Shown here piece by piece: positions 1 through 19,642 of a stretch of DNA of 64,000 bases (the stretch's first letter is position 1; every line of letters begins with the position of its first letter). The notes under the pieces were generated by a model. The model was not told where the DNA came from. It saw nothing but the letters and a program-made list of their open reading frames with translations, and ran no database searches. Position numbers and translations under genes: made by a program. The DNA comes from Schmidtea polychroa (lineage: Eukaryota). The stretch spans positions 122,552,397-122,616,396 of the forward strand of contig CM097887.1 of the NCBI GenBank assembly GCA_044892525.1, in the 5' to 3' direction.

Positions 1-1
1 C

Positions 2-3000
2 TATAAGAGAGAAAAGAAAGTAAATTGGAAGTTGATAGTAGGTTTTCTACCATTTTTGGCAAAAACAATGGTGTTGCACGGTCATTCTAAAGACATACAT
101 AGAATAAAACGATTGATCAAAATACTGACAAAAATAAAAGGAACTGACGAGGAAGTCGGTAGACGATTTCGGAAAACAATGTATGATGAGGCAACGAGAG
201 CGCAACTGAAAAAGAACAAACCAAAATTCCTAGACAGATTTAGAAATCGATCAAACAGCAGCGATAGTGATGATGACGACAACGGGAATGACAAATACCC
301 ATATCCAAGTAGAAACCCGAATGAAAAGCCAATAGAAACAGCGCCATACTGGGAGAAAGAAAAAACAAATACCTGGATAGCCAACGGAAGTTATATACCA
401 CCGGATATCGTTGGACAACAAGCAGCGCTAACCATGACACAAAATATGTATCCACAGTTACCAAGTCAACCAGGTATGAACTATATGCCGACCCGAAGAA
501 CGAAAAGTGTAGACCAAGCGGACGACGTAAGAACGATAGCAGTGATGAGTTCACCAGGAGGTGCGGCAGTAACAGTCATGATCCAAATCAACGGGAAAGA
601 GACAAGCGCCATGATAGATACCGGAGCAAACGTATCAGCAATAGCAATAAACCAAATACCCAGTAAATGTTGGAAAGATATCGAACAAACAACTATCCAT
701 ATCATCGCATGCAGTAAAGAAACCGTAGACGTAGTAGGAAGATGGTGGACTACGTTACGATATCAGGATAACGAAATTGAAACGTATCTAGCGGTGATAC
801 CCAAACTGAGTGAACCATGTATAATCGGAACGGATTTAATGCCGGAATTGTTTAAGGAAGTAGTAATCGATTTAACAACAATGTGTCTAAAAGACAAAAT
901 GGGTAGAATATGCAAGATGAACGCAATAATTAGATGCCCGGAGAAAATAATTGTACCCGCAAAATCACAGATGATATGTCAAATAAAAGTGGATGCAGGA
1001 ATGGAAGGAGAAGTCATTTTTGAGCCAAGCAAATCATTCGAAAAACGACGAGAATTACCATTGGCAAGAGAAATAATAACAATAAATGAAGACGGGGAAA
1101 TACCAATTAACATCACAAATTTCGAGGAAGAAGACAAGATCATATATGAAAATGAAAGATTGGGTAGATTGACACCCATGATAGACATCGAATTACCAAA
1201 AATCACCAACGAAACAACGAAAGCGGACGAATTATGGATAATTGATAGCACCTTGCTAACGGAAAAAGAAAAGGAGAGACTTCAACAATTATTGATAGAA
1301 TATAAAGATATATTCGCAATTTCGGATTTAGATTTGGGAGCATGCGATGTTACACTACACGCAATACCATTAATAGACGAAACTCCAATCGCACTACGTC
1401 CATACAAACTAGCAGAGAAGCAAAAAGAGATAGCCGAGGCAGAAGTACAAAAAATGCTAGATGCACAAGTGATCGAACCAAGTTGTTCGCCATGGCAATT
1501 TCCAGTAGTCATGGTGAAGAAAAAAGATGGTACTCAGAGATTCTGTATCGATTATCGGAAACTAAATGCAGTAACAAAAAGAGACACATACCCATTACCA
1601 GACATCAATGAGATGTTACTTATGTTACAGGGGGCCGCATATTTTACATCTTTAGATCTGAAAAGTGGATATTGGCAGATCAAAGTCAAGGAGGAAGACA
1701 AAGAGAAAACAGCATTCACATTGGGCCGAGATCTATACCAATTCAGGAAAATGCCGTTCGGACTGACCAATGCCCCAGCATCATTCCAGAGATGTATGAA
1801 TTTTGTCACACACGGGATCAAGCAATGTATGGTATATATTGATGATTTATTAATATATTCAGCAACTTTCGAACAACATTTGGAGGACATTAGAAACGTG
1901 TTCATCCGATTACGACAATGGAAACTGAAACTTAAACCATCCAAATGTGATTGGGCAAAAGAAAAAGTTACGTTCTTAGGACACATAGTGTCAGCAAAAG
2001 GCAAAGAACCAGATCCAAGAAACATAGAAAAAATAAAAACATGTCCAGCACCAAAAACTGTCACCCAAGTTCAAGAATTTCTCGGATTATGCGGATATTA
2101 TCGAAAATTCATCAAAAACTATGCAGGCATTGCGAAACCAATACAAGAATTAGTGAAAAAGGATATTTCATTTATTTGGGGTGCAGAACAACAAAAAGCG
2201 TTTGAGACATTGCGAGATAAATTAATTGAAGCCCCAATACTAGTACATCCTGATTTCAAGAAACCGTTCTTATTAGCAACAGATGCAAGTGGATATGCAG
2301 CCGGAGCAATATTGGGACAACTCGACGAGGAAGGGAAAGAAAGAGTGATTGGATACTACAGTAGAACGTTTAAAAAGCACGAGAAAAACTATTCCGTAAC
2401 CGAGAGAGAAGCGTTAGCAATCATACAAGCAATTAAACATTTTCGATATTTGTTATGGGGACACGAAATATGTATCACCACGGATCATCAACCATTAGTA
2501 TGGCTTGGTCAACACAAAGAAGCTTCAAGTAGATTGATGCGATGGGCAATGCAGTTACGAGAATATTCACCGTTCATAAAATTCAAAGCGGGAAGAGCGA
2601 ATGCCAATGCGGATTGTATGTCCAGATTTATCTTTCCAGATTTGGTAGATCACGAAATGCAACGAATATGTCTGATGGTAGCAGAAGATTTAGATTTTTG
2701 CCAATTACGGAAAGACCAACAAGAGGATACAGAGTTGAAGCAAATCATTGAATATGTGAAAACAGGGAAAGCAGAGGTATATGAGAAAGATCAAAAATTG
2801 AAGGAGCATATGGATAAACATCGACATCGATATATTATCGAGAAGGACTGGTTATTGATAATGGATGGCGAGAAAAGACTGATGTGCATTCCCGAGAATA
2901 GACGTAAAGATCTACTAACACAATACCATGACGGAAGACTCGGAGGACATATGTCATCTAAAAAGACGTTGGCACGAATGAAACAAAAATATTTTTGGCC

Positions 3001-5698
3001 TACATTGACCGAGGATGTAACGGAATGGGTGAAAAATTGCATAACTTGCGCAACCAGAAAAAACACGGGAACAAAATGGAAGGCACCATTAAAACCAATG
3101 CCAGTACCAGCAGAACCAATGACTATGATATCTATGGATGTAGTCGGTCCATTACCAGAATCAGATAGAGGGAATATATATATATTGGTGATTACGGATT
3201 ATTTGACGAAATTCCCCGAAGCATTCGCAATGGCAGATCAGAAAGCAAGAACAATCGCAAAAATACTAGTAGAGGAGATATGCTGTCGATATGGAACACC
3301 GAAACGGATATTAACCGATCAAGGGACAAATTTCATGAGCGAAATAATGAGCGAAGTCACCAACTACTTCAAGATCGCAAAATTAAGAACATCACCGTAC
3401 CATCCACAAACTAATGGTATGACAGAAAGATTCAATGGAACACTGATTCAAATGTTATCAAATTATGTCGATCGTCATCAACGAGACTGGGATGAATATA
3501 TAAAATTATGTCTAATGGCTTACAGAATGTCGATTCACGCGTCCACAAAGATGAGTCCGTTCAAGTTGATGTACGGCAGAGAATGCAATATGCCAATGGA
3601 TTTAGAATATCAGCCACCAATATCACAATACATGGAAATAGACGATTATGTAACCAAGTTCAAGGAAAGAATGCAGGAAATCTGGGAAACTGCAGGATTG
3701 AATATAAAATTTTATCAAGAAAGTTACAAAGATCTACATGATAGAAAGAAAAACGTCAAACAGCATACGTTTCAAACAGGCGATTGGGTGATGATCGAAA
3801 CACCAGAATTAATTCCAGGAACCACCAAAAAATTACAACGAAACGGTAAAGGGCCGTATGAGATTCTATTCGTCGGAGAAACTAATGTAAGAGTACGATT
3901 AATGAACAACCCTTTTACAAGACCAATATACGTAAATGTTGCACGATGTAAGCCAATTCCGAAAACCGCCACCAGTCAGCCAGAAGGACGTACATTAACG
4001 ACAAGATCACAAACGTATAGAATAAACATGTTACAGCAGATAAACGAACCAACAGGTAATCGATTAGGGTTACAACCATCAGAAGCCGAGAAAATCATAA
4101 AGGAAGTAAAAGTTAAAATGCCCGGATGGGCAGAAGACAGATTAGATTTTGAGATATTGGGAGGTCTGCTAACAATGATCGAAAATTATGCAAACCGAGA
4201 AAGAACACACCCATTACTCAGGGTAGTAAAAAGTCAATGGCCTATATTATTTACGATCACAGACCACTATGGAGATACACCGCTGCACAAACTTTTAAAG
4301 GTCGGGAATAATGAACAAATACTGGAAACGATCGAAGCATTTCGCGATTGTAACATTTCGACGGATCAAGAAAACAACCAAGGTTACACCCCACTAATGA
4401 TAGCAGCCAATCGGGATAAAGCTAAAGATATTATCATCGCATTACTTGAAACTGGGTCAAAGATAACCACACAAGACCACAACCAGAAAAATGCACTACA
4501 TCATGCAATCGAAGGGAAAAGTACGGAAGCCTTCATAATCTTAGTAGATCTATTATCATATGAGGATAATAGGGAGATAGGAAACATGTATGACGGGTTA
4601 TTAACTGCAATCAAAGAGAAATTAATAACAATTACTGGAATACTAATTGCGTGGAGGAACCCGATCAAAAACGATTATATGGTAGATATAAACGAAACAT
4701 TTACCAAAGGAGAAAACACCTTGATGAGAGAAGCGATGAGAGGACATCACCTATTCGAAATTCCAAAACAACTACTACAACGTGGCATAAAGTTCTCAAA
4801 TCACAAAGACGAACAACTAATCAGAAAACGAATTACCAACTTAGAAAAAGCTATATCTCAATTTACCGATAAAGTACAAGTAAAATTTTGGGAAACCGTG
4901 AGTGTTTTACATATGATGGAAACTATGAACAACATTCGAGAAAACTACCTAAGTATTATTCAAGTTCTAACGGCAGAGGAACGCATTAACAGTTCGAACA
5001 AGAAAAAGATAAAAATAAAGAAAGTAAAAGCAAGAGAGTCTGAGGAACAAGTCGATCAAACAATAACCGATATAGCAACAACAAGTAAACCAAAGACAAT
5101 AAACTCCGACCAAGAGATAGTAGTACGTAAGGCTAAAGAGGTATTCTTTGAAGAAATGCAAGATCTATCCGATGAAGCGATACTATCAAAAATAACAAAA
5201 ACAGTACACACCTACGCAAGAGACCAGACCACAAATCTAGACATAGAAAAAATAAAAACATTTATACCACTAGCATTCACCTTACCAACAAAAGATTCAA
5301 GAACACCATTACAACAAGCCATTTTAGCAGCAAAAGAAAACAGAGCAATAACCATCATAAGAATCCTCAGGGACTTCGGAGAAGAATCTAATGCAAAAAA
5401 TGAACAAGGAGAAACGGCAATGATGTATGCAGCAATAACAAAGATACACCCGAAAACCTTACATATACTACATCAATCAGGTTCGAGACTGGATGAAATA
5501 TCAAACGAAGGAAATTCTACCATGGATTGGGCAACAATACAACCAAACTTGGAAATGATTAGATTCATTTGTAAAAATGCTACAAGAGCTGAGGTAGAAA
5601 ATATCTGTAAAAACACGTCACAGTTCCAATGGAACGATACGGATGAACTTAGAAGCTATGAAGTTATTGCTAACATGGAGAATACCACAAAGCAATAA
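2..5698 (+). CDS. pol: Retrotransposon polyprotein: aspartic protease, reverse transcriptase, RNase H, integrase, plus C-terminal ankyrin repeats (5'-truncated by the window edge)
   Basis: Frame is open from position 2 (the track's start at 32 is TTG). Protease SAMIDTGANVS (DTG at 617-625); RT RFCIDYRKLN, MPFGL and YIDD (1835-1846); RNase H LATDASG, EREALAI, TDHQPL; integrase HDGRLGGH...CITC, MDVVGPLP, TDQGTNF, ERFNGTL, GPY; ankyrin-like GDTPLH, GYTPLMIAA, QKNALHHA, RTPLQQA, GETAMMYAA. Confidence 0.97.
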   Translation, partial: YKREKKVNWKLIVGFLPFLAKTMVLHGHSKDIHRIKRLIKILTKIKGTDEEVGRRFRKTMYDEATRAQLKKNKPKFLDRFRNRSNSSDSDDDDNGNDKYPYPSRNPNEKPIETAPYWEKEKTNTWIANGSYIPPDIVGQQAALTMTQNMYPQLPSQPGMNYMPTRRTKSVDQADDVRTIAVMSSPGGAAVTVMIQINGKETSAMIDTGANVSAIAINQIPSKCWKDIEQTTIHIIACSKETVDVVGRWWTTLRYQDNEIETYLAVIPKLSEPCIIGTDLMPELFKEVVIDLTTMCLKDKMGRICKMNAIIRCPEKIIVPAKSQMICQIKVDAGMEGEVIFEPSKSFEKRRELPLAREIITINEDGEIPINITNFEEEDKIIYENERLGRLTPMIDIELPKITNETTKADELWIIDSTLLTEKEKERLQQLLIEYKDIFAISDLDLGACDVTLHAIPLIDETPIALRPYKLAEKQKEIAEAEVQKMLDAQVIEPSCSPWQFPVVMVKKKDGTQRFCIDYRKLNAVTKRDTYPLPDINEMLLMLQGAAYFTSLDLKSGYWQIKVKEEDKEKTAFTLGRDLYQFRKMPFGLTNAPASFQRCMNFVTHGIKQCMVYIDDLLIYSATFEQHLEDIRNVFIRLRQWKLKLKPSKCDWAKEKVTFLGHIVSAKGKEPDPRNIEKIKTCPAPKTVTQVQEFLGLCGYYRKFIKNYAGIAKPIQELVKKDISFIWGAEQQKAFETLRDKLIEAPILVHPDFKKPFLLATDASGYAAGAILGQLDEEGKERVIGYYSRTFKKHEKNYSVTEREALAIIQAIKHFRYLLWGHEICITTDHQPLVWLGQHKEASSRLMRWAMQLREYSPFIKFKAGRANANADCMSRFIFPDLVDHEMQRICLMVAEDLDFCQLRKDQQEDTELKQIIEYVKTGKAEVYEKDQKLKEHMDKHRHRYIIEKDWLLIMDGEKRLMCIPENRRKDLLTQYHDGRLGGHMSSKKTLARMKQKYFWPTLTEDVTEWVKNCITCATRKNTGTKWKAPLKPMPVPAEPMTMISMDVVGPLPESDRGNIYILVITDYLTKFPEAFAMADQKARTIAKILVEEICCRYGTPKRILTDQGTNFMSEIMSEVTNYFKIAKLRTSPYHPQTNGMTERFNGTLIQMLSNYVDRHQRDWDEYIKLCLMAYRMSIHASTKMSPFKLMYGRECNMPMDLEYQPPISQYMEIDDYVTKFKERMQEIWETAGLNIKFYQESYKDLHDRKKNVKQHTFQTGDWVMIETPELIPGTTKKLQRNGKGPYEILFVGETNVRVRLMNNPFTRPIYVNVARCKPIPKTATSQPEGRTLTTRSQTYRINMLQQINEPTGNRLGLQPSEAEKIIKEVKVKMPGWAEDRLDFEILGGLLTMIENYANRERTHPLLRVVKSQWPILFTITDHYGDTPLHKLLKVGNNEQILETIEAFRDCNISTDQENNQGYTPLMIAANRDKAKDIIIALLETGSKITTQDHNQKNALHHAIEGKSTEAFIILVDLLSYEDNREIGNMYDGLLTAIKEKLITITGILIAWRNPIKNDYMVDINETFTKGENTLMREAMRGHHLFEIPKQLLQRGIKFSNHKDEQLIRKRITNLEKAISQFTDKVQVKFWETVSVLHMMETMNNIRENYLSIIQVLTAEERINSSNKKKIKIKKVKARESEEQVDQTITDIATTSKPKTINSDQEIVVRKAKEVFFEEMQDLSDEAILSKITKTVHTYARDQTTNLDIEKIKTFIPLAFTLPTKDSRTPLQQAILAAKENRAITIIRILRDFGEESNAKNEQGETAMMYAAITKIHPKTLHILHQSGSRLDEISNEGNSTMDWATIQPNLEMIRFICKNATRAEVENICKNTSQFQWNDTDELRSYEVIANMENTTKQ

Positions 5699-7253
5699 AT
5701 ATGCAATAAATATAAATGAGTTCTACGAAAACGGAGAAAATGCTATGGTTAAAAATACACTAACAAAAGGAGGAACTCCGAAAATCATAATGATCGTATT
5801 AAACAGGGAAGATCTCAAATTCACGCAGAATCTAAACGAACAAAAGCGAATCGGGAAACATCGTCGGATACAATTAAGAGAATTAGTGAAAGAATGGAAT
5901 AGAAAGAGACATGTAGCAACAGGCAGAAAGGAGTTCGAATTCGAAGCAAAATTAGCAAGAAACAGAGTGCTAACGGCATACCGCAGATTGTTGAATGATA
6001 TAAATGTCGAGGACGACATTTTAAACGATAGCGGGGGAGATAAAGACGATAAAGACGACGATAATAATGAAAAAGGTCGAAACGGGAATAAAGAGAAAGA
6101 GAAATCAGAGGAGAATAATCAAGAAAATAACGACGCGAGTAGGAAAAAAGAGGAAAATAACCCGAGAAACCGAATAAAGCAAGAAGAAAAGACGAATAGT
6201 GGAAAACAGAGGGTATGCCTACTTTTTACCAACAAAGAAATGGAGACAAATATGATGATAATGATACTCGTATTAACAATGGTGGAAATGATAACAGCCC
6301 AGGGAGGAATGAGAACGATAAAAGAAGCCAAAGAAACGGAAAATAAGGACAACAAAGAAGAAGAACTAAAACAAGAAAAGAAAAAACAAGTACAAGAGCA
6401 GCAATGGGATCTAAAAGAAGAATGGGATTTAAAAGAAAGGTGTATATTAGGAAGATGTATGTCTAGAGCTTATCAGAGACTAGTGTTAAAAAATGAAGAT
6501 GCAGAACCAATAACGGAAGTAAGAATACAAGAAGCATACCGAAATCGAGACGGAAAGAGAATAACGAAAGTCAAAGGGAAGGAGGTACACCTGGGAAAAG
6601 GAGGTGAGGTAGTGATAACGCAACTCCAGCCAAGAAAAGAACACAAAGTCTGCATTGCAAGATTAAGACCGGGTGAAGACTGTCTACAATATGTAATACA
6701 GCAACAACCTCCAAAAGAATACACAATATGCATCTGGAGAAAAGATACAGCGAGAGAATGTCGACGATACCCTGGGAAAAGAGGGAGGAAAAGAAAAATC
6801 AATGATGAAAAAGATGAGCAAGGAAAACGCAAGAAAAACAGTGAGAAACATCAAGACAATTATGTATCCGAGGAGGAGATGGAGAAAATACAAAAAATGG
6901 CAAAGGAAGGTATGAACGAGGAAATAGCAAGAATACGAGGAATGATGAAAGGAAATGGCAAAGAAGGTAATCTAAAAAGCACAGAAGCAATATCAACAAT
7001 AACGAACAAGGAAAAAGCGGAAATTATAAGCGTAAAACAGATGATGTGGATCAGCGGCATAATAATAACAGGGGCCTTTTTAATCATAACGGGGGGGACA
7101 ATAAAAATAATCAAAGATAGACGGCATCGCGGAGAACTAGAAATGGCCAGAATAAGAAATTTTCAACATCGTGTAAAACGACCAAGTAATATCAAGCAGG
7201 AACAGTGGGTGGAGGCCTGGAATGCTCAGCGCCCTCCAAGCTCACGTATATAG
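5643..7253 (+). CDS. ORF2: N-terminus continues the ankyrin array of pol; the C-terminal part (from ATG 6240) resembles a type I membrane protein
   Basis: LLLTWRIPQSNKYAININEFYENGENAM matches ILIAWRNPIKNDYMVDINETFTKGENTL in pol. Hydrophobic MMIMILVLTMVEMITA, a six-Cys region, TM-like WISGIIITGAFLIITGGTI and a basic tail. Confidence 0.75.
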   Translation: MNLEAMKLLLTWRIPQSNKYAININEFYENGENAMVKNTLTKGGTPKIIMIVLNREDLKFTQNLNEQKRIGKHRRIQLRELVKEWNRKRHVATGRKEFEFEAKLARNRVLTAYRRLLNDINVEDDILNDSGGDKDDKDDDNNEKGRNGNKEKEKSEENNQENNDASRKKEENNPRNRIKQEEKTNSGKQRVCLLFTNKEMETNMMIMILVLTMVEMITAQGGMRTIKEAKETENKDNKEEELKQEKKKQVQEQQWDLKEEWDLKERCILGRCMSRAYQRLVLKNEDAEPITEVRIQEAYRNRDGKRITKVKGKEVHLGKGGEVVITQLQPRKEHKVCIARLRPGEDCLQYVIQQQPPKEYTICIWRKDTARECRRYPGKRGRKRKINDEKDEQGKRKKNSEKHQDNYVSEEEMEKIQKMAKEGMNEEIARIRGMMKGNGKEGNLKSTEAISTITNKEKAEIISVKQMMWISGIIITGAFLIITGGTIKIIKDRRHRGELEMARIRNFQHRVKRPSNIKQEQWVEAWNAQRPPSSRI

Positions 7254-7421
7254 AAAGGATTATGACTGTATATAGATTGTAAAAAGTAAGTAGGTAATAT
7301 TTATTTATATAACAGTATTCTATATTTTTATATAAGCGCGGTATCAATAGTATATAATGATGGGGATAATTAATATGAAAATAAAATTAGATAAGGATTG
7401 AAAAGTATATATAAATTAAGA

Positions 7422-7781
7422 ATGGAGCGAATAGGCGAGGAAGTAAATCACAGTACAACAACCGAGGAGATGTGGAAACAACAATGTGCAATGTTAACTC
7501 AAGTGATTTCGAATTTACAGGAACAAGGACTCGCTGTACAAAGAAGCTTAGTCGAAAGTTTAAATAAAGGCTTCAGTTATGTAAGAATAATCGAAGATCA
7601 ACGAATAAAAATAGAACAAATGCAGCGAGAGATAGACCGAATATCACGATACAGCCAGGTGCAAGAAGAGGAGTTAATAAGAATCGCGGAAGAGATGGAG
7701 CGAGAGGAGATAGAAGACTGGTCAGAATGGTTAACCAGCAGGGAAGAGGGCGGACAAGAGGCCGACTCTTCCAGCCAATAA
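7422..7781 (+). CDS. Small acidic coiled-coil accessory protein (119 aa from ATG 7422)
   Basis: Open frame with the element's A-rich codon bias, Q/E-rich helical sequence, flanked by AT-rich spacers. The track start at 7398 is TTG; the first ATG is at 7422. Confidence 0.7.
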   Translation: MERIGEEVNHSTTTEEMWKQQCAMLTQVISNLQEQGLAVQRSLVESLNKGFSYVRIIEDQRIKIEQMQREIDRISRYSQVQEEELIRIAEEMEREEIEDWSEWLTSREEGGQEADSSSQ

Positions 7782-7870
7782 ATATAACCTAAAATAGCAA
7801 TGTAAATAACTGTAAATAAAAATACGAAACTGTACCAGTAACGAATATATGTATATATATAATTATAGAA

Positions 7871-9258
7871 ATGGATAAGCGACAACGAGAAGAATTCAAA
7901 GAAATTGTTGAACAAATCAGAAAGTCCACCACAATTCGAATACACAACCATGTAACGTGTGGAATATGCAAGAGCTTATTAAGAGAACCTCACCAAACCA
8001 GATGTGGATGCAGAATGTGCAGAGAATGTGTAGAGGAGATAATAAAGAAGGGACCACAATGGTGCCCAGTATGCAAAGAAACAATGATAACAAGTTTGGG
8101 AGATACAAACGAAGATAAAGCAGCTGTAAAAGATATGTCGAATGCAAACCTAGGATGTAAAAACACCCATGTAATTGGCGAGGAGTGATATGGGAAGTGA
8201 GGCAACATATGGAGCAATGTGAATATAAAATCAGTCAATGCAAACGTTGCCAAGAAGAGATTAAAGTCAATGAAGAAGCAGAACATCAAAGTCGATGCGA
8301 AGAAAGACTGGAGAAATGTGAGTATTGCGGAGAAACCGACACCTGGAAAAAACTAATCAGTCAACATCACAACATACAAGAGGAGAAAGTGTGCGCAGAA
8401 TTCAGAGGAGAATGTCCCAATAAATGCGATAAACCCGGAGTAATAAAACTCGCTCAACATCTGAAAGAATGTGAAAGGAAAAAGATAAGGTGTGTGTTAG
8501 GAAAATGGGGATGTCAGAAACAATTACACCGAGGGGAATTACCCCAACATCTAGCAGAAAACGTATCAACACACGCGGAAATATGGTCAACGGTATTACA
8601 AGAAAACGAAAGGAAAACCGAAAACTTAGAAAGAGAAATAGTCTCGCTAAAAGCGTTGGTAAAGGAACTATTGGAAGAAAAGGAAGCATTTGAAGAGGCG
8701 AGAACAAGTACAAAGATACAGACAAATCTAGTAGAAACTAGCAACATTATGGTGAAAGAACTACATCAAAAAGTAAGCGAATTAAACCTCAACGAATTAA
8801 TACCTACGGCTCCATACATATGGAAAATAACGGGAGTAAAAGAGAAGATGCAGAGAGCGAGAAATGGAAAGGATACAACCTTACTAAGTCCAGCATTCTA
8901 CTCATGGAAAAACGGGTATAAAATGAAAATGAAAGCATACCCCAATGGGGATGGAAGTGCATACGGAACGCATTTCTCAGTATTCTTCTTGATGTGCAAA
9001 GGGCCATACGACGAGTTAATAGAATGGCCATTCAAAGCAAAAATAGACCTCGCAATGATGAACTATCAAAGTATACATGAACAGAGTTTCCATACAGCGG
9101 GAAACCTCGTATGTTACCAAAGGCCCTTGGAAGAAGAAGGACCAGCAACTGGAGCACCAAATTTCATCCTACAGCGGAAAGTAGAAGACATGACGAGAAA
9201 CGACACTATATACATAAAAATAGCGGTGAGGCGAGACGGGAAGAGTAGGACTGAGTAG
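7871..9258 (+). CDS. TRAF-family protein (RING, TRAF zinc fingers, coiled coil, MATH/TRAF-C), intronless, split by a 1-nt frameshift near 8160-8170
   Basis: RING CGIC...QTRCGCRMCREC...CPVC in 7871-8188. In the other frame PCNWRGVIWEVRQH, then C/H zinc fingers, a coiled coil and MATH motifs YIWKI, SPAFYS..GYKM, YPNGDG..GTHFSVFF..KGPYD..EWPF, YQRP. Confidence 0.92.
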
Positions 9259-9473
9259 AGAGACGAATAATTTTGTATATACTAATTGTAAATATCGGCG
9301 TATATATCCAGTAAAATATTATATAATAGTGTAGAAAACCCCAAATCTACCAAAGGTAAACTTAAGCGAAAAACTCCTAAAACAACTCCTATAACGAATT
9401 ATAAAAATAAATAAATAATAAACCAGATATAAGCGTACAACGTTAAGTTAATGATATCGTTATTTAGACAAAG

Positions 9474-10511
9474 ATGACACAAGAAGGAACTGAAGCCCCA
9501 AACCACGAAACCAAAGTCAATAAAATCCATAAGGGAAAATGGGTCAAAGTAATGTTACAATTGACGAACCAGACCCACAACCACCTCGAAGAGGCCAGGG
9601 AATACGAGAATAACAAATATCAGTGGTTAGTAAACAATTTAAGAGCCGAAGCAGAAGCATGCAAAAGAGCCTCTAAGTGGGCATCATTGGAAAACACTCG
9701 CCAAGAAGCGCACAGCCACTATTTAAAACAGTTAGTGCAGGAAGCACGGAAACGATTGACGGACGAAAACACAAAACGAGAAGCAGAAAAACAAAAGGAA
9801 GGAAGGAAAATGAATCACCTATTGGCAGAAGCCCGAAACTGGAAGCGGCAGAACAAAGAGATGAAAAAAGAAATGAAAGAATTGCCTATGAGATTAGAAT
9901 ACGAAAGCGAACAAGGCAAATGGGAGGAAAATCTGGTCATAAGAGAAGAACTGAAACGGCTCAGAAAGATTGCGGCCCGAAGCCAAACATGGCAGACCAA
10001 AGCCATGGAATTTGAAAGACATCTAGCCATGAAAATCTCCATAAGGGAGCACGAGAATGCCGCAATGGAAGAACTGATACTTCAACAGTCAGGACGACTC
10101 GTGGAACTGGTAAATAAGGTCGCAGAACTAGAACGAGATGTCAACGGATACCAAGGAGCTCTGGAGCAGAGAAATATGGTACTGGCGGGGAAAAACAAAA
10201 AGTTAGAAAACGAAAGGAAAATGTATAACGAAAATCTCAAAAATCTGGAGATAGAGATCAAGAAATGGGAAAACGGCGAAAAAGCGGAAGAGTTAGAAAA
10301 ACAGATAGAGGTACGGGATGACGAAACTAGGTATTTAACCTACCTATTGGACGAGGAACTCAATGTGTCAAGAGCGCTAAGAGACGAAGTCCAAGAACTT
10401 AGAGCGCAGATTCCCCGGTACTACATCCCATTTGATCCCATCGCACTCCAATTACAAACGTCAGTAGAAAGCGATGAAGGATATGTAGGCCAGGAAGAGA
10501 CCTTTGTATAA
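9474..10511 (+). CDS. Long coiled-coil accessory protein (345 aa)
   Basis: ATG-to-stop ORF, E/K/R/Q/L-rich helical sequence, element codon bias; no catalytic motif recognised. Confidence 0.8.
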   Translation: MTQEGTEAPNHETKVNKIHKGKWVKVMLQLTNQTHNHLEEAREYENNKYQWLVNNLRAEAEACKRASKWASLENTRQEAHSHYLKQLVQEARKRLTDENTKREAEKQKEGRKMNHLLAEARNWKRQNKEMKKEMKELPMRLEYESEQGKWEENLVIREELKRLRKIAARSQTWQTKAMEFERHLAMKISIREHENAAMEELILQQSGRLVELVNKVAELERDVNGYQGALEQRNMVLAGKNKKLENERKMYNENLKNLEIEIKKWENGEKAEELEKQIEVRDDETRYLTYLLDEELNVSRALRDEVQELRAQIPRYYIPFDPIALQLQTSVESDEGYVGQEETFV

Positions 10512-10684
10512 AGATAAAGGGGAAGATAAAAAATATAAAAATCGGGACCTGTATCCCAACCAAAAAATTAATGGTACGGTAAAAGTATGAAAGGGACTGT
10601 AACCCTGATTATAAAATAACATATAAATGTATAAGTATAAGCCGCACTGTAGCGCAATTATTAATTACGTATATATTATAGAAA

Positions 10685-11386
10685 ATGAACGCTGAGAACG
10701 GACAATCTATCATAACACCTATAATTGAATTAGAAGAGGGGGAAATTGAAGTTGATGAAGTGGAAAGGAAGAAAACTATCAAGGAAGAATTACAAGAAGA
10801 GAGACAGGAAAACGAAAGATTAGTAGAAAGGTGGAGAGATAATCGAAAAATGATTAAAGTATTGAAAAGAGAATATATCTTGTTAGAAGGAGTAAAGAAA
10901 GAAGTAGAGGAAGAAAACGAATGGCTTCACGAGCAAAGAAAGCGAGGGAGAAATTGGGAAAAGATCGCGGAAGAATTATGGCAGGAGAGGGCCAGTCGAA
11001 AGGCCGACGAAGTGATTAGTGACTATTGGAAAACCGAGGCACGGAAACACCAAGAAAGCCTGAAAGAGTTACAACTCCAACTACACCAAAAACAGAAGGA
11101 ATGTGAGATAATGAGACGAATGAACAACAAATACCAGGAAATAGACAACGAAGAAGACGGGGAAAGGGAAAATGATTTTCTACAGATAATGAACCATAAA
11201 AACCTCGAAAGAGCAACACAAGAAATAAAAGCACTAAAAGAAAAAATAATAACCCTAAAGCAACAGTTAGACGAAAGAGACAAACAATTAAAAGTACTAC
11301 CCGAATTGAGAAAACGAGTAATAAAAGCAGAAACGAGAGTGATGAGAACATCCGAGAAAACCCGTAAAAAGAAAACCCGGCAATAA
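10685..11386 (+). CDS. Coiled-coil accessory protein (233 aa) with a basic C-terminus
   Basis: ATG-to-stop ORF, E/K/R-rich, ends RKKKTRQ. Confidence 0.78.
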   Translation: MNAENGQSIITPIIELEEGEIEVDEVERKKTIKEELQEERQENERLVERWRDNRKMIKVLKREYILLEGVKKEVEEENEWLHEQRKRGRNWEKIAEELWQERASRKADEVISDYWKTEARKHQESLKELQLQLHQKQKECEIMRRMNNKYQEIDNEEDGERENDFLQIMNHKNLERATQEIKALKEKIITLKQQLDERDKQLKVLPELRKRVIKAETRVMRTSEKTRKKKTRQ

Positions 11387-11441
11387 TTAAAGATGAATGA
11401 TCAATGTAAATAATTGTAAATAAAAATTTTCGTATAGTAGT

Positions 11442-12077
11442 ATGTGGTTCGGAACAACCCTGATGACAATAATGATGATAGCGATAAACGGAATACCCAT
11501 GGGGCAGCCAATCCCAACACTCTGGGAGAATCCCGAGAAACAGCAAAACCCGTTAACCAAACTGAAAAGCGAAAGAAAGCTCTCCAACAACATCCCGAAG
11601 CAATGCTGGAACAAAGCCGTCTGGCAAAAACTTCAAATGCAACTCCACCTACAAACCCAAAAAATCGAACAGCTCGAAATTCTCTTACAAGAACAAACCA
11701 CCCAACAATCCTTGAAGGAAATCATCGTGAAGAAGGAAGTAAAAGAAAGCCAAGTCTTACTCTATGCTACCATCAGTGAAACCCTTATCATCTGCGCATT
11801 AGTCATCTGGAAAGCATATGATATTCATCGAACATGGAGAAGAAACCAGTCACTATCCGAGAAACACGAAAGAAAGAACCCACGACCGAAAAATAAACAT
11901 AAACGAGCAGTACATTTTCAACAACCAAACCCACCCGACCAAATGCAACTAAATCTATCTCCTGATCAAATGCCTGTTACAATCCAGCTCCCCACGATAA
12001 CAACTTCAACCAGCCATCCGACCCAGAATTCAACCAACCAAGACAGTAATAACATTCCGAACCTTGAGATCATGTGA
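11442..12077 (+). CDS. Putative type I membrane accessory protein (211 aa)
   Basis: Signal-peptide-like MWFGTTLMTIMMIAING, Q/L coiled coil, TM-like VLLYATISETLIICALVIW, a basic stretch and a P/Q/T/N-rich tail. Confidence 0.72.
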   Translation: MWFGTTLMTIMMIAINGIPMGQPIPTLWENPEKQQNPLTKLKSERKLSNNIPKQCWNKAVWQKLQMQLHLQTQKIEQLEILLQEQTTQQSLKEIIVKKEVKESQVLLYATISETLIICALVIWKAYDIHRTWRRNQSLSEKHERKNPRPKNKHKRAVHFQQPNPPDQMQLNLSPDQMPVTIQLPTITTSTSHPTQNSTNQDSNNIPNLEIM

Positions 12078-12839
12078 CATCGACCATTCATAAACTTTGT
12101 GTGTATAAATCCGGTCACCTAAAGTGGCCACTGCTTGCTTATATTTGTCCTTTTATCTGTTTAATTAAAGTATTATTTAGTTATTTTAATTTTATGTTTG
12201 TGTGAATGATGATCGTGAAATTAGTTGTTATGCCGAAAAAAGGTATGATTTAAACGTATGATATTATGTGAATTGCGGGGCGCAATTTTAACGGGCCCCG
12301 GAGTGATTTGTTGGGCTAAAACGTGGAGTTTCGAAAACTGGAGCAAATAGAAAAGTAATCCTTGAAAAATTAACGAAATAAAATAAAAATATAAAGTACC
12401 ATCAAATTCTCACTAATAAAGCAAAAAGGAACAATAAAATATCAATAAGAGAATAAGAATAAGTAAAACAAACTAAATAAAACCCAATAAACCCCTTGAG
12501 ATTTAGAAATAAAGCGATTTAGGACCCAGCAGATGAAATAGAATAAAATAAGTAAAAAAGTGACAACAAATAAACGAGAAATTTAAGAAATAAATAAAAA
12601 AAAATAAAACTATCTTTAAGTCTAATTAAAACAAAAAATTATATTACAATAAAAATAGGAGGAAAATAATAAAAATAAGAAAATAAATAAAATAATAATA
12701 AGAAATAAGTTAAGTCATTAAAATCTAATATATTATAATAAAAAACATAAAAATAATAATAAATAGTAAAAATACAAACAAGTCGTGTCCTGATTGGACG
12801 AAAAATAATATATAAGGAACGGAAAATATCTGTAGATTA

Positions 12840-12919
12840 CCATTTTTAAAAAATATTCTACAGGTGACCATTTTTAAAAAATATTCTACAGGTGACCACT
12901 TTTAAAAAATATTCTACAG
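12840..12919. repeat. 28-bp tandem repeat, about 3 copies (CCATTTTTAAAAAATATTCTACAGGTGA)
   Basis: Units start at 12840, 12868 and 12896 (third unit partial, one mismatch). Confidence 0.92.
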
Positions 12920-15219
12920 ACTTGACAGATTTCGGAACCTTTAATTAGCCTACAGCGAACTAGTTCAGAGATTTCCAAACCAAACCGAGGAAGGAATATA
13001 TAGAGGCCAAACTACAAATCCATTCGGGAAAAAATCTTAAATTCAACCGATTTTAACTTCAGTTTTCGAAACTCAAGGTATGCCTCGACAGTTGTTTTAT
13101 TTATGGTTATTAGGTTAATTTCGTTAATTATTATAAATATAATAAAACAATTTCATATAATAAATTTATTTAAATGAAAAGTTGCCTTTCTTCATGGTAC
13201 CGGCGACTGTACCATCTGAGAGCTCCCAGTATGATGTGGACGAGTTGGAATTGCACTGCAGTTGAGGACACCACCGTGGAAAGGTTGGTATGCATAAGAA
13301 ATCACGAACATGCTGAAAGGAGAATGTGATATTTGTAGAGAGTGATATTGTCATATTAGATATCCATCAAGGAGACGAGGAGGTTTCGGTTACGTAGGAG
13401 GAGCAACATCATACTCGGAGATCCAAATGATATGGTCGCCGGGTAAATTTTATTTATGCATTTTTCTATCATTCAGTTTGATTATTGTATTGTTGATTTG
13501 ATTGCATGGAAACGAGTTGATTGGTCCCTCATGACGGTGCAAGGAGGCGGCAGCAATGAATGCCTTCTTGGGTGTGTCGTGAGGGGTGAAGAAACTCAGT
13601 AGGTGGAACATCCAGTTGATAAGTGAAAATTTCCTTCATCAAGCGCGATCGTCCATAGAGCTTACCATCGATTCATTTAGCCCAATCGAGATTTCCAGTA
13701 GATGTAGAGATGATTTGAATTCCGAATGCAGGCAGTTCAGAGCGAGATAGGCAGTGACGATAATAATCCACATAGCTAGGAGAAAGATTTTTTTTTTGAT
13801 ATTCAGCCGGTCAATCGACGTAGCTAGGAAAGAGTAGTGTTGACCATGGATTGCAAGTAAATCCAACGATTTTTCAGTGACGCTCTGTGTTTGCAAGGTT
13901 CTGTCTGATTTGTGCCGTCATGATGTTAGTGGTTACATCCATTGCCGATGTACTCTTACGATTTGATTGTCGTCCGTGAGTCGCCAATGCTAGTGATAAA
14001 AATCTCTCGCTGACAGGGAAGTAAACATCTTGTAGGGAAATTATCAAAATTCTTACTTCGAGCTCGCAGACAGTAGTTGCCAACGATAACGAAATCAGTT
14101 GATTTACATTAGCCAGCGTAGAGTTAGTCGACAGGAGATATCTGATAATGTCCTGGAGAAAGAGATAACATGTTAGTTTTTCTGGGGAAACGTCAAATGG
14201 ATAAGCTGATAGTCATTGATCTGAATTTAGATCGTAAAAGGAAATTAGATGATAATGTTGAGCTTACCCAATAATCTATGAAGTTGTCGCCCACTCAGAT
14301 TGAATAATCTGCTTTTCCAATTCATCTACGGCTGCTTATTTGAGGGATCTATTACGCAACCACTATTATTCCGACTTGAGCATGCACATACACACGCACC
14401 ACAGTCAAATATACATAGGGCAGTGTAAAAGTAAATACACAATTTTTGGTGAGGTAATAGCGGTATGATGATGTGAATTTTTCTAGAACGGTGAGATAAT
14501 AGGATGAGGTAAAGGAATGGATTTCCCCTACACAACTCGATATATCATAATTTCTCACAACAGCATAAACCATCATTCGCAGTGATAGCCAACATACAGT
14601 TACAGATACCACCAGGAGTAATGACACACCTACACAGTCAATCATAATGCATAATCACAAGTGAACGTTTTCCATGACGACGATTTCGACGCGTTATTGG
14701 AATTAATTAGATGTAGATTTAGAGCAGAATTTTCAACTGATCACTTGATCAATTCCATAATTTTGAACGAGATAAAAACATAAATAATCTATTCCGTCGC
14801 CGTGAATTATTTCTCTGTACTTTTAGGTACGCCTACATCGACGGATTGCCATAATGATATCGGCAAATTTTTAAATAAAAATATACTAAGGGGAACAAGG
14901 TGGAAGGGTTTTTCAGTGAGAAAGACGAGTTTTACCTGGGGATGGTCCCATCCGAAAGTAAACCCAAAGGGCGAGGTTCATGTAGAGAGAATTTTCCGTA
15001 TGAAATCCCCGTTTCCTTTTCTTAATTTACACGAATTAGGTGAAGAGATTTGAATGTTTACAACTGAATGACTGCGTATAGAGATGGATGAAGAAGTGTG
15101 TGGGTCATCGTTGGGTGGTATGCTTGATAAACTCCAAAGCCACGCTCAAAAATTTGATTATTCTTTTCTCACTAATAGAGGTTTTTCCGAGTAAATATAA
15201 ACAATGATTGATTTTCTAG

Positions 15220-15981
15220 ATGGCTACATCGTCCAACCACGCCAAAGAACTTCGCCCGTGTTTTTCTTGTGCGGACAAGAACGCGGATATCGCCCAACTG
15301 CATTTATATATCGGGGCTCTCAAAAAGAGAATTGATCTCTATGAAGGAACGTGGTTCTCCCCGCCACAAATGAAAGAGGAACGCAAGAAAATTCTCCGAT
15401 TAGAGCATTGCAGGGACAGCCTGCTAGAGGAAAGCCGGTGTCAGCGGCTCACCATCAAAGCGCAATCGGAAGCCCTCCATAAGGTGTATACGGAGGCAGA
15501 ATTGGCTAAGCGGGTGCGAGAATTTCCCGTTCTAGAGGGGACGAATGTCTTTCCCCCTCACCACCCGTCTCCTACTTCTTCCAGCTCGCACTGCCAGGGG
15601 CACGGCTCACAACTGCCGCCCATTCCAGCCCCGGTGTTGTCAAGTCACCAGCCAAAGACAGGTGGACCTACCAATCCCATCGTAGCTCCAATCCTGGTAG
15701 CACAAATCGGTACCACGAACACCGAAAACCCCCCGACTACCCGCAAACGGAAACGGCCAACTCGAGCCGAGAAGAACCAAAAACGCCGAGATGCGATGAC
15801 AGCACTCGAGACGTCCTTATCGGCGGCGAATTCAAAAATCCAAGAGATAACGTCCTCCCATTCAATCCCCTCAAAGGAAGTCTTCCGCATTGTTCCAGCT
15901 GAGGGCATCAAATACATTGTAGATAGCCGATTACCGGTCGACATAGATGAGATACTGGCCGATGGAGATAACTTTGTTTAA
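15220..15981 (+). CDS. ORF inside the candidate LTR (253 aa): CxxC, coiled coil, P/S/H-rich linker, basic NLS-like segment
   Basis: ATG-to-stop ORF directly preceded by TTTTCTAG. Contains PCFSCAD and RKRKRPTRAEKNQKRR. Visibly more GC-rich than the upstream ORFs. Confidence 0.7.
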   Translation: MATSSNHAKELRPCFSCADKNADIAQLHLYIGALKKRIDLYEGTWFSPPQMKEERKKILRLEHCRDSLLEESRCQRLTIKAQSEALHKVYTEAELAKRVREFPVLEGTNVFPPHHPSPTSSSSHCQGHGSQLPPIPAPVLSSHQPKTGGPTNPIVAPILVAQIGTTNTENPPTTRKRKRPTRAEKNQKRRDAMTALETSLSAANSKIQEITSSHSIPSKEVFRIVPAEGIKYIVDSRLPVDIDEILADGDNFV

Positions 15982-16805
15982 CGTGACGTACAATTGAGTT
16001 TGATTTCCTCTTCATTGAGTTGTAAATTATCTTGTGAATGTTGCTAATGTTATGTCTTTTTGACTGCTGTTGATCTGTTAGTAGTAACGATATTTTTATA
16101 GTTTCAGCGTCAATAAAATTTTTTTGTTTGATTTCAGTTTTGTCGAGTTTTCATATATTTGTTTGTGCAATTAGGATAAATGAGATAATGCTGCGGAATG
16201 AAGGTAATTAAAGTTGAAGGTCGTTCCTTTGGACCAGGATCAGACTGAGTGACACGCATGTATGTGGGTAAGTCCTTCTAAGGCACCGTAGGACCCGAAC
16301 CGAGAAAGGGTTAGGAGTAGTCCTAAGGCAGGGGCTCACCTGCTAACTTTTTCCGACCCGTGTGAGCAGCACCAACATGGAACATCACCATGGGCTCATA
16401 CGTGGGAATATGCAATCGATCATTTGGAGTATGTGTAAGAAATGTATAACTGAGTAATGATGCTTGATAGGTGTGATGGAAAGGCATGCATAATTTTCTT
16501 TCTTCTCCACATACGCCAACACGTATGAAAACAGAAAACGTTAATTAATTAATTAATTGGCTAATGGAAAACCCGAGCCAATGGAGAACCCGAGAGATAA
16601 AGGAAACCCGAGCTGGGTAAACAAGAAGAAAGGCAAACAAAAGGAAAATTTGGGCCCATTAGCTTGACACAATGATTAATGGGAAAAGAGTAAGGAGAAG
16701 ATAGCGCGCGTAGGAAGACCGGTAGGGCCATTAATTATCTGGATTCGTTGGACCATTATGGATGACAGCCGAAGCAAACACGTAGGAGAAAATGTCAAAC
16801 GAAAG

Positions 16806-16909
16806 ATTGGCTCGGCAATAACCATTTGTCATCCTGATTTCGAGGAGTATATAAGCAAAGGGAAAATCAGAGAAAATCGGCATTTTGCCTCAGGTAGGTT
16901 AAGAAGAAT
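16806..16909 (+). promoter_or_regulatory. Putative LTR promoter (CCAAT box, TATA) and downstream splice donor
   Basis: ATTGG at 16806, TATATAA at 16848-16854, TCAG about 30 nt downstream, CAG|GTAGGT at 16901-16909. The TATA and donor are not conserved in the related LTR at 42.8 kb. Confidence 0.4.
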
Positions 16910-17421
16910 TAGACTGTAGGAAAAGTGGTAAACGAATTAGGGAAGTAGGGAAAAGAAGAAATAGAATTAAGAATACGGAAAGGCGAAAAGGGATCAAACC
17001 AAAGAGAAACCGAGGAAAAAGAGAGTCGAGATAACTAAAGGATCAAAAGGTGAATATTGTTTGTTTGCAAAGCATCAACGCCGAGCGGAGAATCGTATAA
17101 AACTTTGATTGGTAATTGTAGCGTGATAATAAATTGTGAACTTGTTGTTTCAATATACGTTGGGTCGTTCATTGTTTTACTTTAAAGAACACCAGGAGTC
17201 AGAGAGAACCGACTTGAAATAATCCAAAACCCAACAGACTAATGAAATCAACAAAGTATTTGATCTTTTGTCAAAACAAAAATAGAAGAAATGACAATTA
17301 ATCTCAACAATTCTTTTGAAATAAGTAATGAGTAAAATCTAGTTATTTTTTTTATTTTAGTATGAATCTGGACATTTAAAACAAATATCAAGTAATATCA
17401 ATATTTGATACAACCCATTAA

Positions 17422-18394: not shown

Positions 18395-19642
18395 TTATTT
18401 ATTCGGCACAAACATTTTAATCCCCTCTCTCTCGATTTCTGTATAATTCAATATATCCAACAATTCTTTATCAACTTCATCTGTTTTAGTTAGCGACGAA
18501 ACTCGATCACAGGCCAGTTTGTTCGCTGTGCAAATGTTCTTGATGGCCAGAATGGCATGCTGCTGGATATAGGGATTGCATAAATCGATTCTTGTGCTCG
18601 ACATTACAAGTTCCAATCCACCAGTGTCAACGACAATGTCTTGAATTGATTTATTATCATGGACTAAGTTAGAAATTAATTTGATAGTGAATTTTTTTAT
18701 GTTGAATATTGGTCGATCTATAAAAGTTTCATTTTTACTGAATGAATAATGGCTTTTAAAAATTTTATTTTCTTGAGGATCTTCATCGTATTGACGGAGA
18801 ATTCTTAGAACTTCTAACAATGACTTGATAAGAGCAGATTGTATTTCACATGAAATTATTTCTTTGATGTTATGAATATTGGATAATATCATAAGAGACA
18901 ATTTAATTATATCCAATTGCGATTGGTCAGATTTTTTAAATAAATCTTTATCGTCTTCTACTTTCAATAGCAAATAATCGACTAAAAATTTCGTATTTTC
19001 GATAGACATGTCAATATGTGCTTCATCAATAAAATATAACAACTGTACAATTACAACAGGATTACAAAATTTGAAACAATTTCTAACAAATCTAGAAGAT
19101 TTTTCCAACATTTTAGTTAGTAAAATATTACCATTTTCTATTTCAGATTCGTCAACTGCTTTGAAAATATTAGATATTAAAGAGAAATTTATACATGAAC
19201 AAACATAATCACATGAAAATATTTTGCTACTGTAAACATGCAATATCAGCCAAATAATAGTTCTGATTTCAGTGGAAGTTGAAATTTCAACGCAAACAAA
19301 AATTAAAGTGTTCAATATTTTTATAAGGCGATAATCGTATTGGTGCAAATTATCTTCAGAACATAGAAAGTTGTGTAACGTTTGGGATGCAACTAACTTT
19401 ATTGTTTCATCATCACATTCAAATTTAAATGATAAGCAGCAAAATATGAAGTCTAAAAGTTCTGTGAAACATTCGGAAGGAAATTTTTTCAATCCTAATG
19501 AATTTCTAAAAATTTGAATTGACTTAATTAGCAATTTTATATTATTGCAAGATTCTGATTTCAATAATGGTTGAACCTCTTTGAAGATTTTTAAAATATT
19601 CTGTTTATTGTAACTATCGATGTCTTTCAAATTAAAATTCAT
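18395..19642 (-). CDS. ATXN10: Ataxin-10 homologue (ARM-like repeat protein), single exon, 415 aa
   Basis: C-terminal KKFTIKLISNLVHDNKSIQDIV...GGLELVMSSTRIDLCNPYIQQHAILAIKNICTAN matches the ataxin-10 signature domain. Confidence 0.85.
   Translation of the reverse strand: MNFNLKDIDSYNKQNILKIFKEVQPLLKSESCNNIKLLIKSIQIFRNSLGLKKFPSECFTELLDFIFCCLSFKFECDDETIKLVASQTLHNFLCSEDNLHQYDYRLIKILNTLIFVCVEISTSTEIRTIIWLILHVYSSKIFSCDYVCSCINFSLISNIFKAVDESEIENGNILLTKMLEKSSRFVRNCFKFCNPVVIVQLLYFIDEAHIDMSIENTKFLVDYLLLKVEDDKDLFKKSDQSQLDIIKLSLMILSNIHNIKEIISCEIQSALIKSLLEVLRILRQYDEDPQENKIFKSHYSFSKNETFIDRPIFNIKKFTIKLISNLVHDNKSIQDIVVDTGGLELVMSSTRIDLCNPYIQQHAILAIKNICTANKLACDRVSSLTKTDEVDKELLDILNYTEIEREGIKMFVPNK

Follow-up and report, generated by a model that had tools for sequence, protein, structure and literature searches.

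Does the 64,000-nt stretch of the Schmidtea polychroa genome analysed here (the window; unprefixed coordinates are window positions, and stranded features lie on the plus strand unless stated otherwise) carry a single 4.9-kb long terminal repeat (LTR) with a gene in its unique 3′ region (U3)? A sequence-only reading of the window had proposed such a 4,928-nt LTR at 12309–17236, on the basis of a 7-bp inverted pair (TGTTGGG at 12309 and CCCAACA ending at 17236), a TATATAA at 16848, an AATAAA at 17128 and a flanking GACT at 17237, and had divided it into a U3 of ~4.5 kb, a repeat region (R) of ~270 nt and a short unique 5′ region (U5). All of these landmarks are present, and a multi-kilobase LTR containing a real gene (i.e., a 253-aa open reading frame (ORF) at 15220–15981) does begin at 12309, so that this proposal was partly supported; its length, its target duplication and its U3 assignment, however, proved wrong. 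The gene resides in the LTR of a giant Burro-like Gypsy element inserted into the LTR of another element, and conservation places it downstream of the promoter, likely in U5.

When the interval 12309–17236 was searched against the own genome, 32 of 5,698 candidates were scored and yielded 34 matches. Only the window copy itself reached the end of the query (position 4928), and no other match extended past position 4218; 30 of the 33 non-self matches spanned query positions 1 to 4213–4218, the remainder being one partial and two short matches. The best match was a twin on the same strand, 26,382 bp upstream (G000:C3:122538323–122542533), so the repeat predicted to lie upstream exists, but it covers query positions 1–4213 instead of 1–4928. 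CGTA lies directly before this 5′ LTR and a primer site after it, while the window copy ends at 16521 (…CGCCAACA) and is then followed by CGTA (16522–16525, the right copy of a 4-bp target duplication). The duplication of this LTR is CGTA and not GACT, an outcome that the sequence-only reading had itself named as refuting it. From the shared span and the CGTA flanks, it follows that the LTR (12309–16521; TGTTGG…CCAACA) is 4,213 nt long and that the inner element measures 30,595 bp, with an internal region of 22,171 bp. Its two LTRs differ by one substitution and two one-base indels, both in homopolymer runs, and one of these indels cuts the ORF of the 5′ twin to 192 aa.

Both end motifs delimited the LTR in 39 of the 50 loci examined, with a length of 4.13–4.25 kb. 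A 4-bp duplication flanked 11 of 11 delimited LTR pairs (3 further pairs could not be delimited) and was found in 12 of 13 solo LTR loci, three of these loci being copies of one duplicated locus. The gene-bearing LTR thus occurs solo, as the sequence-only reading had envisaged, at this shorter length and not at 4.9 kb. Three solo LTRs, at G000:C2:37305375, 37332771 and 37360213, have identical flanks and a 27.4-kb spacing, and are a tandem segmental duplication rather than separate insertions.

The last 715 nt of the interval (16522–17236) belong to a separate family (40 scored genomic matches, 96–100% identity), and constitute the 3′ part of an outer element's 1,041-nt 3′ LTR, with 2 mismatches vs. 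the intact outer 5′ LTR. The latter (G000:C3:122519673–122520713) lies 18 kb further upstream and has GACT directly before it. The outer 3′ LTR is split, in that its first 330 nt border the inner 5′ LTR on the left and add up, with these 715 nt less the 4-nt duplication, to 1,041 nt; the inner element is inserted into the outer element's 3′ LTR, and the whole nest spans 49,960 bp. A solo LTR was rejected for the outer repeat, as the intact 5′ partner makes the flanking LTR the 3′ LTR of a full element. The GACT at 17237–17240 is therefore a true target duplication, but that of the outer element, and the TATA at 16848 and the AATAAA at 17128 correspond to positions 653 and 933 of the outer LTR. 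Because all three belong to the outer LTR, the layout with a 4.5-kb U3 is wrong, and the R and U5 drawn with it are those of the outer LTR. The fusion of two LTRs into one is explained by both families ending in TGTTG…CAACA. The idea of one 4.9-kb LTR flanked by a GACT duplication, for which the perfect inverted pair and the TATA and AATAAA near its end had spoken, is already refuted by the absence of any other copy past 4218, the separate family of its last 715 nt and the two distinct duplications (CGTA inner vs. GACT outer), and retains virtually no probability.

The 253-aa ORF in the inner LTR is under purifying selection. Its frame was open over at least 240 aa in 49 of the 50 fetched loci, and the ratio of nonsynonymous to synonymous substitution rates (dN/dS), always with the window copy as the single shared reference, was 0.06–0.16 vs. 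17 divergent copies (with dS of 0.86–2.6, i.e., near saturation) and 0.16–0.42 vs. the close copies of the young group. In a control comparison, the gene showed 225 synonymous, 182 nonsynonymous and 0 stop changes, vs. 57, 203 and 3, respectively, for a 97-aa antisense ORF taken as control. Antisense LTR ORFs were rejected as genes: they do not persist from one subfamily to the next, and no synonymous excess was seen in the 97-aa ORF. In a search at the protein level, 150 of 7,086 candidates were scored, with identities of 76–100%, and 144 of these lacked an internal stop, although top-scoring matches favour intact copies; more distant versions of the gene are spread across the genome. The LTR DNA upstream of the gene shows only ~35–50% alignment identity over most of 13.6–15.2 kb. 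Directly before the ATG, a splice-acceptor-like tract (TTTTCTAG, 15212–15219) was kept in 11 of 11 aligned LTRs, and a pyrimidine tract plus AG immediately preceded the ATG in 48 of 50 loci.

The position of the gene relative to transcription signals was addressed by conservation among these 11 aligned LTRs, which span subfamilies (3 close and 8 divergent). A predicted promoter at 12793–12815, consisting of a reverse CCAAT box (ATTGG, at 12793) and a TATATAA (at 12809), had both boxes kept in 11 of 11 LTRs, and the sole other TATA-like site passing the scan was located at 12388 (8 of 11), within the A-rich beginning of the LTR. The location of this CCAAT/TATA module predicts a U3 of ~530 nt (12309–12840), with an A content of 53–55%. 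Just past the predicted start lies a 28-nt tandem repeat (2.9 copies, 12839–12919), and divergent copies carry a similar duplication. The predicted genomic poly(A) signal, AATAAA at 13159–13164, was likewise kept in 11 of 11, and would let R end at ~13185 after ~350 nt. Between 12830 and 15210, only 5 of 2,381 hexamers were kept in all 11 LTRs, i.e., this AATAAA and four within one hairpin, and among the 181 pure-A/T hexamers of this region it was the only one. A candidate splice donor (AAG/GTATG, 13075–13083) is situated ~80 nt upstream of the AATAAA, its AGGTAT being present in 8 of 11 copies. The simplest reading, which we deem probable, is that the LTR has a U3 of ~530 nt, an R of ~350 nt and a gene-bearing U5 of ~3.3 kb.

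More distant loci were consistent with this arrangement. Of 20 such loci, 12 displayed the promoter pattern, from which an insertion of an outer-family LTR and a poor match were excluded; in the remaining 10, the module was located 1.9–3.2 kb upstream of a homologous ORF. In 7 of these 10, an AATAAA followed 300–371 nt after the TATA (two being LTRs of one element). The TATA-to-AATAAA spacing is 280 nt in the sister outer LTR vs. 350 nt in the inner LTR. As separate observations, reciprocal nesting was seen at one distant locus (L088), where an outer-family 1,041-nt LTR lies upstream of a distant gene copy, and another (L103) holds two gene-bearing LTR pieces in opposite orientations. A search of the own genome for retrocopies in spliced or polyadenylated form returned 0 matches for each of 3 patterns and was uninformative, and recombination mapping to place R (21 copies, 220 sites) was saturated, with mostly 30–75% incompatibility throughout and no breakpoint.

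The LTR also contains two conserved RNA structures. The first, at 13514–13597, is a long hairpin and a candidate response element, with a folding z-score of −6.55 and a stability reached by 0 of 200 shuffles. Two-sided changes occurred in 11 of its 28 pairs across 17 copies, with 98.9% of cells paired and 0 of 500 shuffles reaching this, although covariation was scored on the alignment that had also served to predict the structure, which biases the result in its favour; slid controls fell to 41–54% paired. The second, at 16265–16405, is the best-conserved block of the LTR interior, and combines a donor-like GGTAAG (16267) with two subsequent hairpins. Mean identity over 16309–16408 was 93% among 10 divergent copies, and 16301–16405 was 99.3% paired with two-sided changes in 4 of 30 pairs. 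Folding of 16265–16405 yielded a z-score of −3.56 on the plus strand vs. +0.37 on the other strand, and the stability of a wider 216-nt stretch around 16301–16405 was not unusual (z-score −0.47). Because the changes are G-U-compatible, both blocks are assigned to plus-strand RNA; neither block had a match in Rfam. In 11 of the 20 distant loci, as judged by the GTAAG motif, the gene remains linked to the structured RNA block 1.0–1.2 kb downstream.

Several points weigh against the layout with the gene in U5. The 11 aligned LTRs are related and not independent; the start and poly(A) sites as well as splicing are deduced from conservation; 3 of the 10 distant module loci are without AATAAA at 300–370 nt; and the hairpins would be transcribed from a position in U3 just as from one in R or U5. 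Moreover, after the gene there is a second, degenerate poly(A) signal at 16112–16117, and this variant signal is also kept, i.e., as AATA(A/T/C)A in 11 of 11 LTRs and as exact AATAAA in 3 of 11. With the same promoter, genomic RNA could instead end there, giving an R of ~3.3 kb that contains the gene and a U5 of ~390 nt, in which case the AATAAA at 13159 would serve only a short RNA or would always be spliced out. Such a U5, with its conserved hairpins, would be of ordinary size, and the AATA(A/T/C)A and its T-rich tract are retained in all 11 copies within an otherwise poorly conserved stretch. However, the exact hexamer is kept in 3 of 11 copies here vs. 11 of 11 at 13159, the strong donor-like site 155 nt downstream of 16112 would occur in both LTRs, and retroviral R regions measure 15–250 nt (PMC12789967). 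We therefore regard such a long R as unlikely.

Less likely still is that the gene lies in U3 after all, with the upstream TATA serving the gene only and genomic RNA arising from a TATA-less promoter at ~16.0–16.3 kb, followed by a short R and U5. This would agree with the precedents of mouse mammary tumour virus (MMTV) sag and human immunodeficiency virus (HIV) nef (PMC12789967), would make for a short strong-stop DNA that is easier to copy, and is in line with the high conservation of the 16265–16405 block. Downstream of 16117, however, the scan recovered neither a conserved TATA or CCAAT nor a conserved poly(A) hexamer, hexamers within 15990–16220 are kept in at most 5 of 11 copies, and genomic RNA could arise only by readthrough of the canonical signal at 13159.

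Beyond the LTR limits, both target duplications, the nesting order, the purifying selection acting on the ORF, the covariation of the hairpin and the tRNA-Pro primer match, which are established, a route of expression can be proposed for the layout with the gene in U5. The CCAAT/TATA module would direct a transcription start at ~12840. Genomic RNA entering the 3′ LTR would terminate ~25 nt past the AATAAA at 13159, i.e., at ~13185, whereas in the 5′ LTR this signal would be suppressed by U1 at the nearby donor or spliced out. Splicing, the likely route of expression for the gene, would join a donor at 13078 or 13443 to the acceptor at 15219 and give a short gene mRNA, which would end at the weak signal at 16112 or continue into the rest of the element. 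A minus-strand strong-stop DNA of ~3.7 kb would then be required. Finally, the basic helix of the protein might bind an LTR hairpin and thereby help intron-containing RNA to be exported or stabilised, in the manner of Rev, Rex and Rem. This last step is the most speculative of all, and we consider it doubtful.

The LTR protein consists of a CxxC motif, a predicted helical hairpin (residues 17–101), a low-complexity linker, a basic helix (RKRKRPTRAEKNQKRR; predicted at residues 174–190) and an acidic tail. AlphaFold modelled confident helices at 17–41, 49–89 and 182–212 with disordered linkers (pLDDT, the predicted local confidence score, of 62.8 for the model). The protein matched nothing by word search, in Pfam, by PDB sequence or in Foldseek (PDB and viral), and the Atlas comparison returned leads only, with bZIP among the nearest named clusters (scores of 0.76–0.82). 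Its N-terminal domain is shared by 10 unnamed database proteins (HMMER; a second run gave 8, partly the same), most of which have an Arg-rich motif where the LTR protein has its basic helix. These database homologues (P0001–P0015) are unnamed single-member records, nearly all fused to unrelated housekeeping domains; the fusions are probably mis-predicted gene models that, e.g., absorbed the acceptor-led exon, but may be real chimeric transcripts from intronic LTRs. Among 25 aligned members, one distant homologue matched Pfam REV (E-value of 0.0013, below the curated cut-off), and the LTR protein itself had no such match.

The covarying hairpin and the basic helix suggest a Rev/Rex-like, nuclear and RNA-binding regulator of the element's RNA. 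Since the LTR protein is without Pfam, PDB, Foldseek or Atlas match, it is the basic motif that points to this step, and that motif could simply serve nuclear localisation. By eye, no clear leucine-rich CRM1 export signal was seen. A transcriptional activator, an anti-silencing factor or a host-directed protein like the apoptosis- and ubiquitin-related cargo is at least as likely as an RNA export factor, at odds we would place slightly short of even. The protein combines coiled-coil-like helices with a basic stretch and an acidic tail, as would suit a nuclear transcription factor, the bZIP clusters lie nearby (be it with lead-only scores), and the element carries RING, TRAF and ankyrin cargo; on the other hand, no DNA-binding family was matched, and gene and structured RNA block remain linked in distant loci. 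For the full proposal, i.e., that Burro-type LTRs could be self-contained cassettes with a ~0.5-kb U3, a ~0.35-kb R and a ~3.3-kb U5 bearing a spliced Rev/Rex-like gene and a hairpin response element, we arrive at a rough probability of 0.22.

The inner element is a young Burro-like Gypsy element, of a kind already known from planarians. Its ORF1 comprises 4,098 aa in a frame that is continuous across the window edge, the 3′ part within the window (2–5698) encoding protease, reverse transcriptase, RNase H, integrase and ankyrin, and the part upstream of the window encoding Gag, CCHC and a fusion glycoprotein. The corresponding Pfam domains were Retrotrans_gag, zf-CCHC, RVP, RVT_1, RT_RNaseH and rve, with Monjiviricetes_fusion (E-value of 1e-72) in frame between gag and pol, upstream of the protease. 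Pfam further identified cargo in the form of Ank_2 (E-value of 1e-17), MATH_2 (E-value of 1e-25) and RING ORFs. Accessory ORFs occupy 5643–12077, among them RING (7871–8188) and zf-TRAF/MATH (8209–9258); the TRAF-like accessory gene at 7871–9258 is split over these two ORFs, one with RING and the other with zinc fingers and MATH. BIR, BCL2-like and Ubi/SUMO-like motifs had no Pfam match at an E-value of 0.05 in the 12 ORFs scanned; in the review of these elements (PMC6431247), some of these motifs had come to light only by profile-profile search.

The 18-nt primer site begins 7 nt past the 5′ LTR and equals the 3′ 15 nt of host tRNA-Pro plus CCA, so that tRNA-Pro(TGG) is the predicted primer tRNA. 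On G000:C1, from ~130.90 Mb (L066), tRNA-Pro(TGG) copies are arranged in tandem with a period of 475 bp, and their pattern matches the genome 2,190 times. No polypurine tract or purine run was found in the stretch before the inner 3′ LTR, unlike in the outer element, which has a purine run; at its usual place lies a G+C-rich inverted-repeat stretch (12268–12308) that is nearly identical in 6 of 6 copies. Plus-strand priming may be unusual in the inner element. TGATT adjoins both inner LTR edges (12268–12308 in the window; L011:8535–8560).

The outer element shares the gag-env-pol gene order, with 41% identity over 881 aa of pol, and its ORF1 is broken by a stop inside env. It contains a 424-aa minus-strand ORF with DUF4371 (L070:3864–5138; G000:C3, ~122.533 Mb), which is probably a DNA transposon and hence a third nesting layer. 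Elsewhere in the window, a ~1-kb diverged outer-family LTR copy (67–77% identity, 42158–43160, with AAAA and AAAC flanks) is probably an old solo LTR, and outside the nest two long ORFs were noted on the minus strand (18395–19642, 415 aa; 48512–49843, 443 aa).

Giant planarian Gypsy-like elements have been described as Burro/GYPSM1 (Jurka 2007; Grohme et al. 2018, reviewed in PMC6431247). As judged by this published description, the inner element resembles them in its total length of >30 kb, its internal region within Burro's up-to-25 kb, its one huge ORF (Gag, CCHC, a fusion glycoprotein between gag and pol, protease, reverse transcriptase, RNase H, integrase and ankyrin) and its RING and MATH/TRAF cargo. 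It differs in an ORF1 of 4,098 vs. 4,873 aa in the review, in carrying MATH/TRAF in downstream accessory ORFs, and in the lack of a BIR or BCL2 Pfam match in the scanned ORFs. The section on Burro in PMC6431247 mentions neither an LTR-internal gene nor a U3/R/U5 map. Ogre elements of dicots have LTRs of 1.9–6.5 kb and extra ORFs in the internal region (PMC6431247); the inner element shares multi-kilobase LTRs on a giant Gypsy element, but also carries a gene inside the LTR. Because Ogre LTRs reach 6.5 kb, the 4.2-kb LTR is no length record.

LTR genes of complex retroviruses, i.e., MMTV sag, MMTV rem exon 2 and HIV nef, lie in U3 (PMC12789967). As in MMTV and HIV, the accessory gene inside the inner LTR would be reached by splicing, and as with MMTV Rem, a candidate regulator would have as its partner a structured RNA element that overlaps the LTR. 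However, whereas these viral genes are read from the 3′ LTR, the predicted U5 gene would be read from 5′ or solo LTRs, and no sequence or fold homology to the MMTV and HIV LTR genes was detected. In foamy viruses, a donor upstream of the poly(A) signal suppresses 5′ polyadenylation (PMC3694450). By analogy, the candidate donor upstream of the poly(A) signal in the predicted R could suppress 5′ polyadenylation in the inner LTR. The U5 of foamy viruses is short and non-coding, unlike the predicted U5 of the inner LTR.

The element family is thus already known and LTR-in-LTR nesting is ordinary; the new part would be the LTR layout. No described LTR ORF, long U5 or Rev-like Gypsy protein was found in the literature consulted, although such a feature may appear in the original Burro publications or their supplements, and the accessible portions of PMC13465017, PMC11410931 and PMC8532177 contain no LTR map. 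If the layout holds, a selected gene would lie downstream of the start, would be duplicated in each round of reverse transcription and would persist in solo LTRs; first-strand copying would proceed over kilobases before transfer, and many expression cassettes would be scattered across the genome. With the regulator included, an invertebrate Gypsy element would possess an export switch in the style of complex retroviruses, with ~3.7 kb of strong-stop DNA and expression even from solo LTRs. According to a second-hand report (PMC13465017), planarian stem cells are protected by one Burro family, and an LTR-encoded regulator would therefore offer a direct way to study the control that such elements exert over their RNA.

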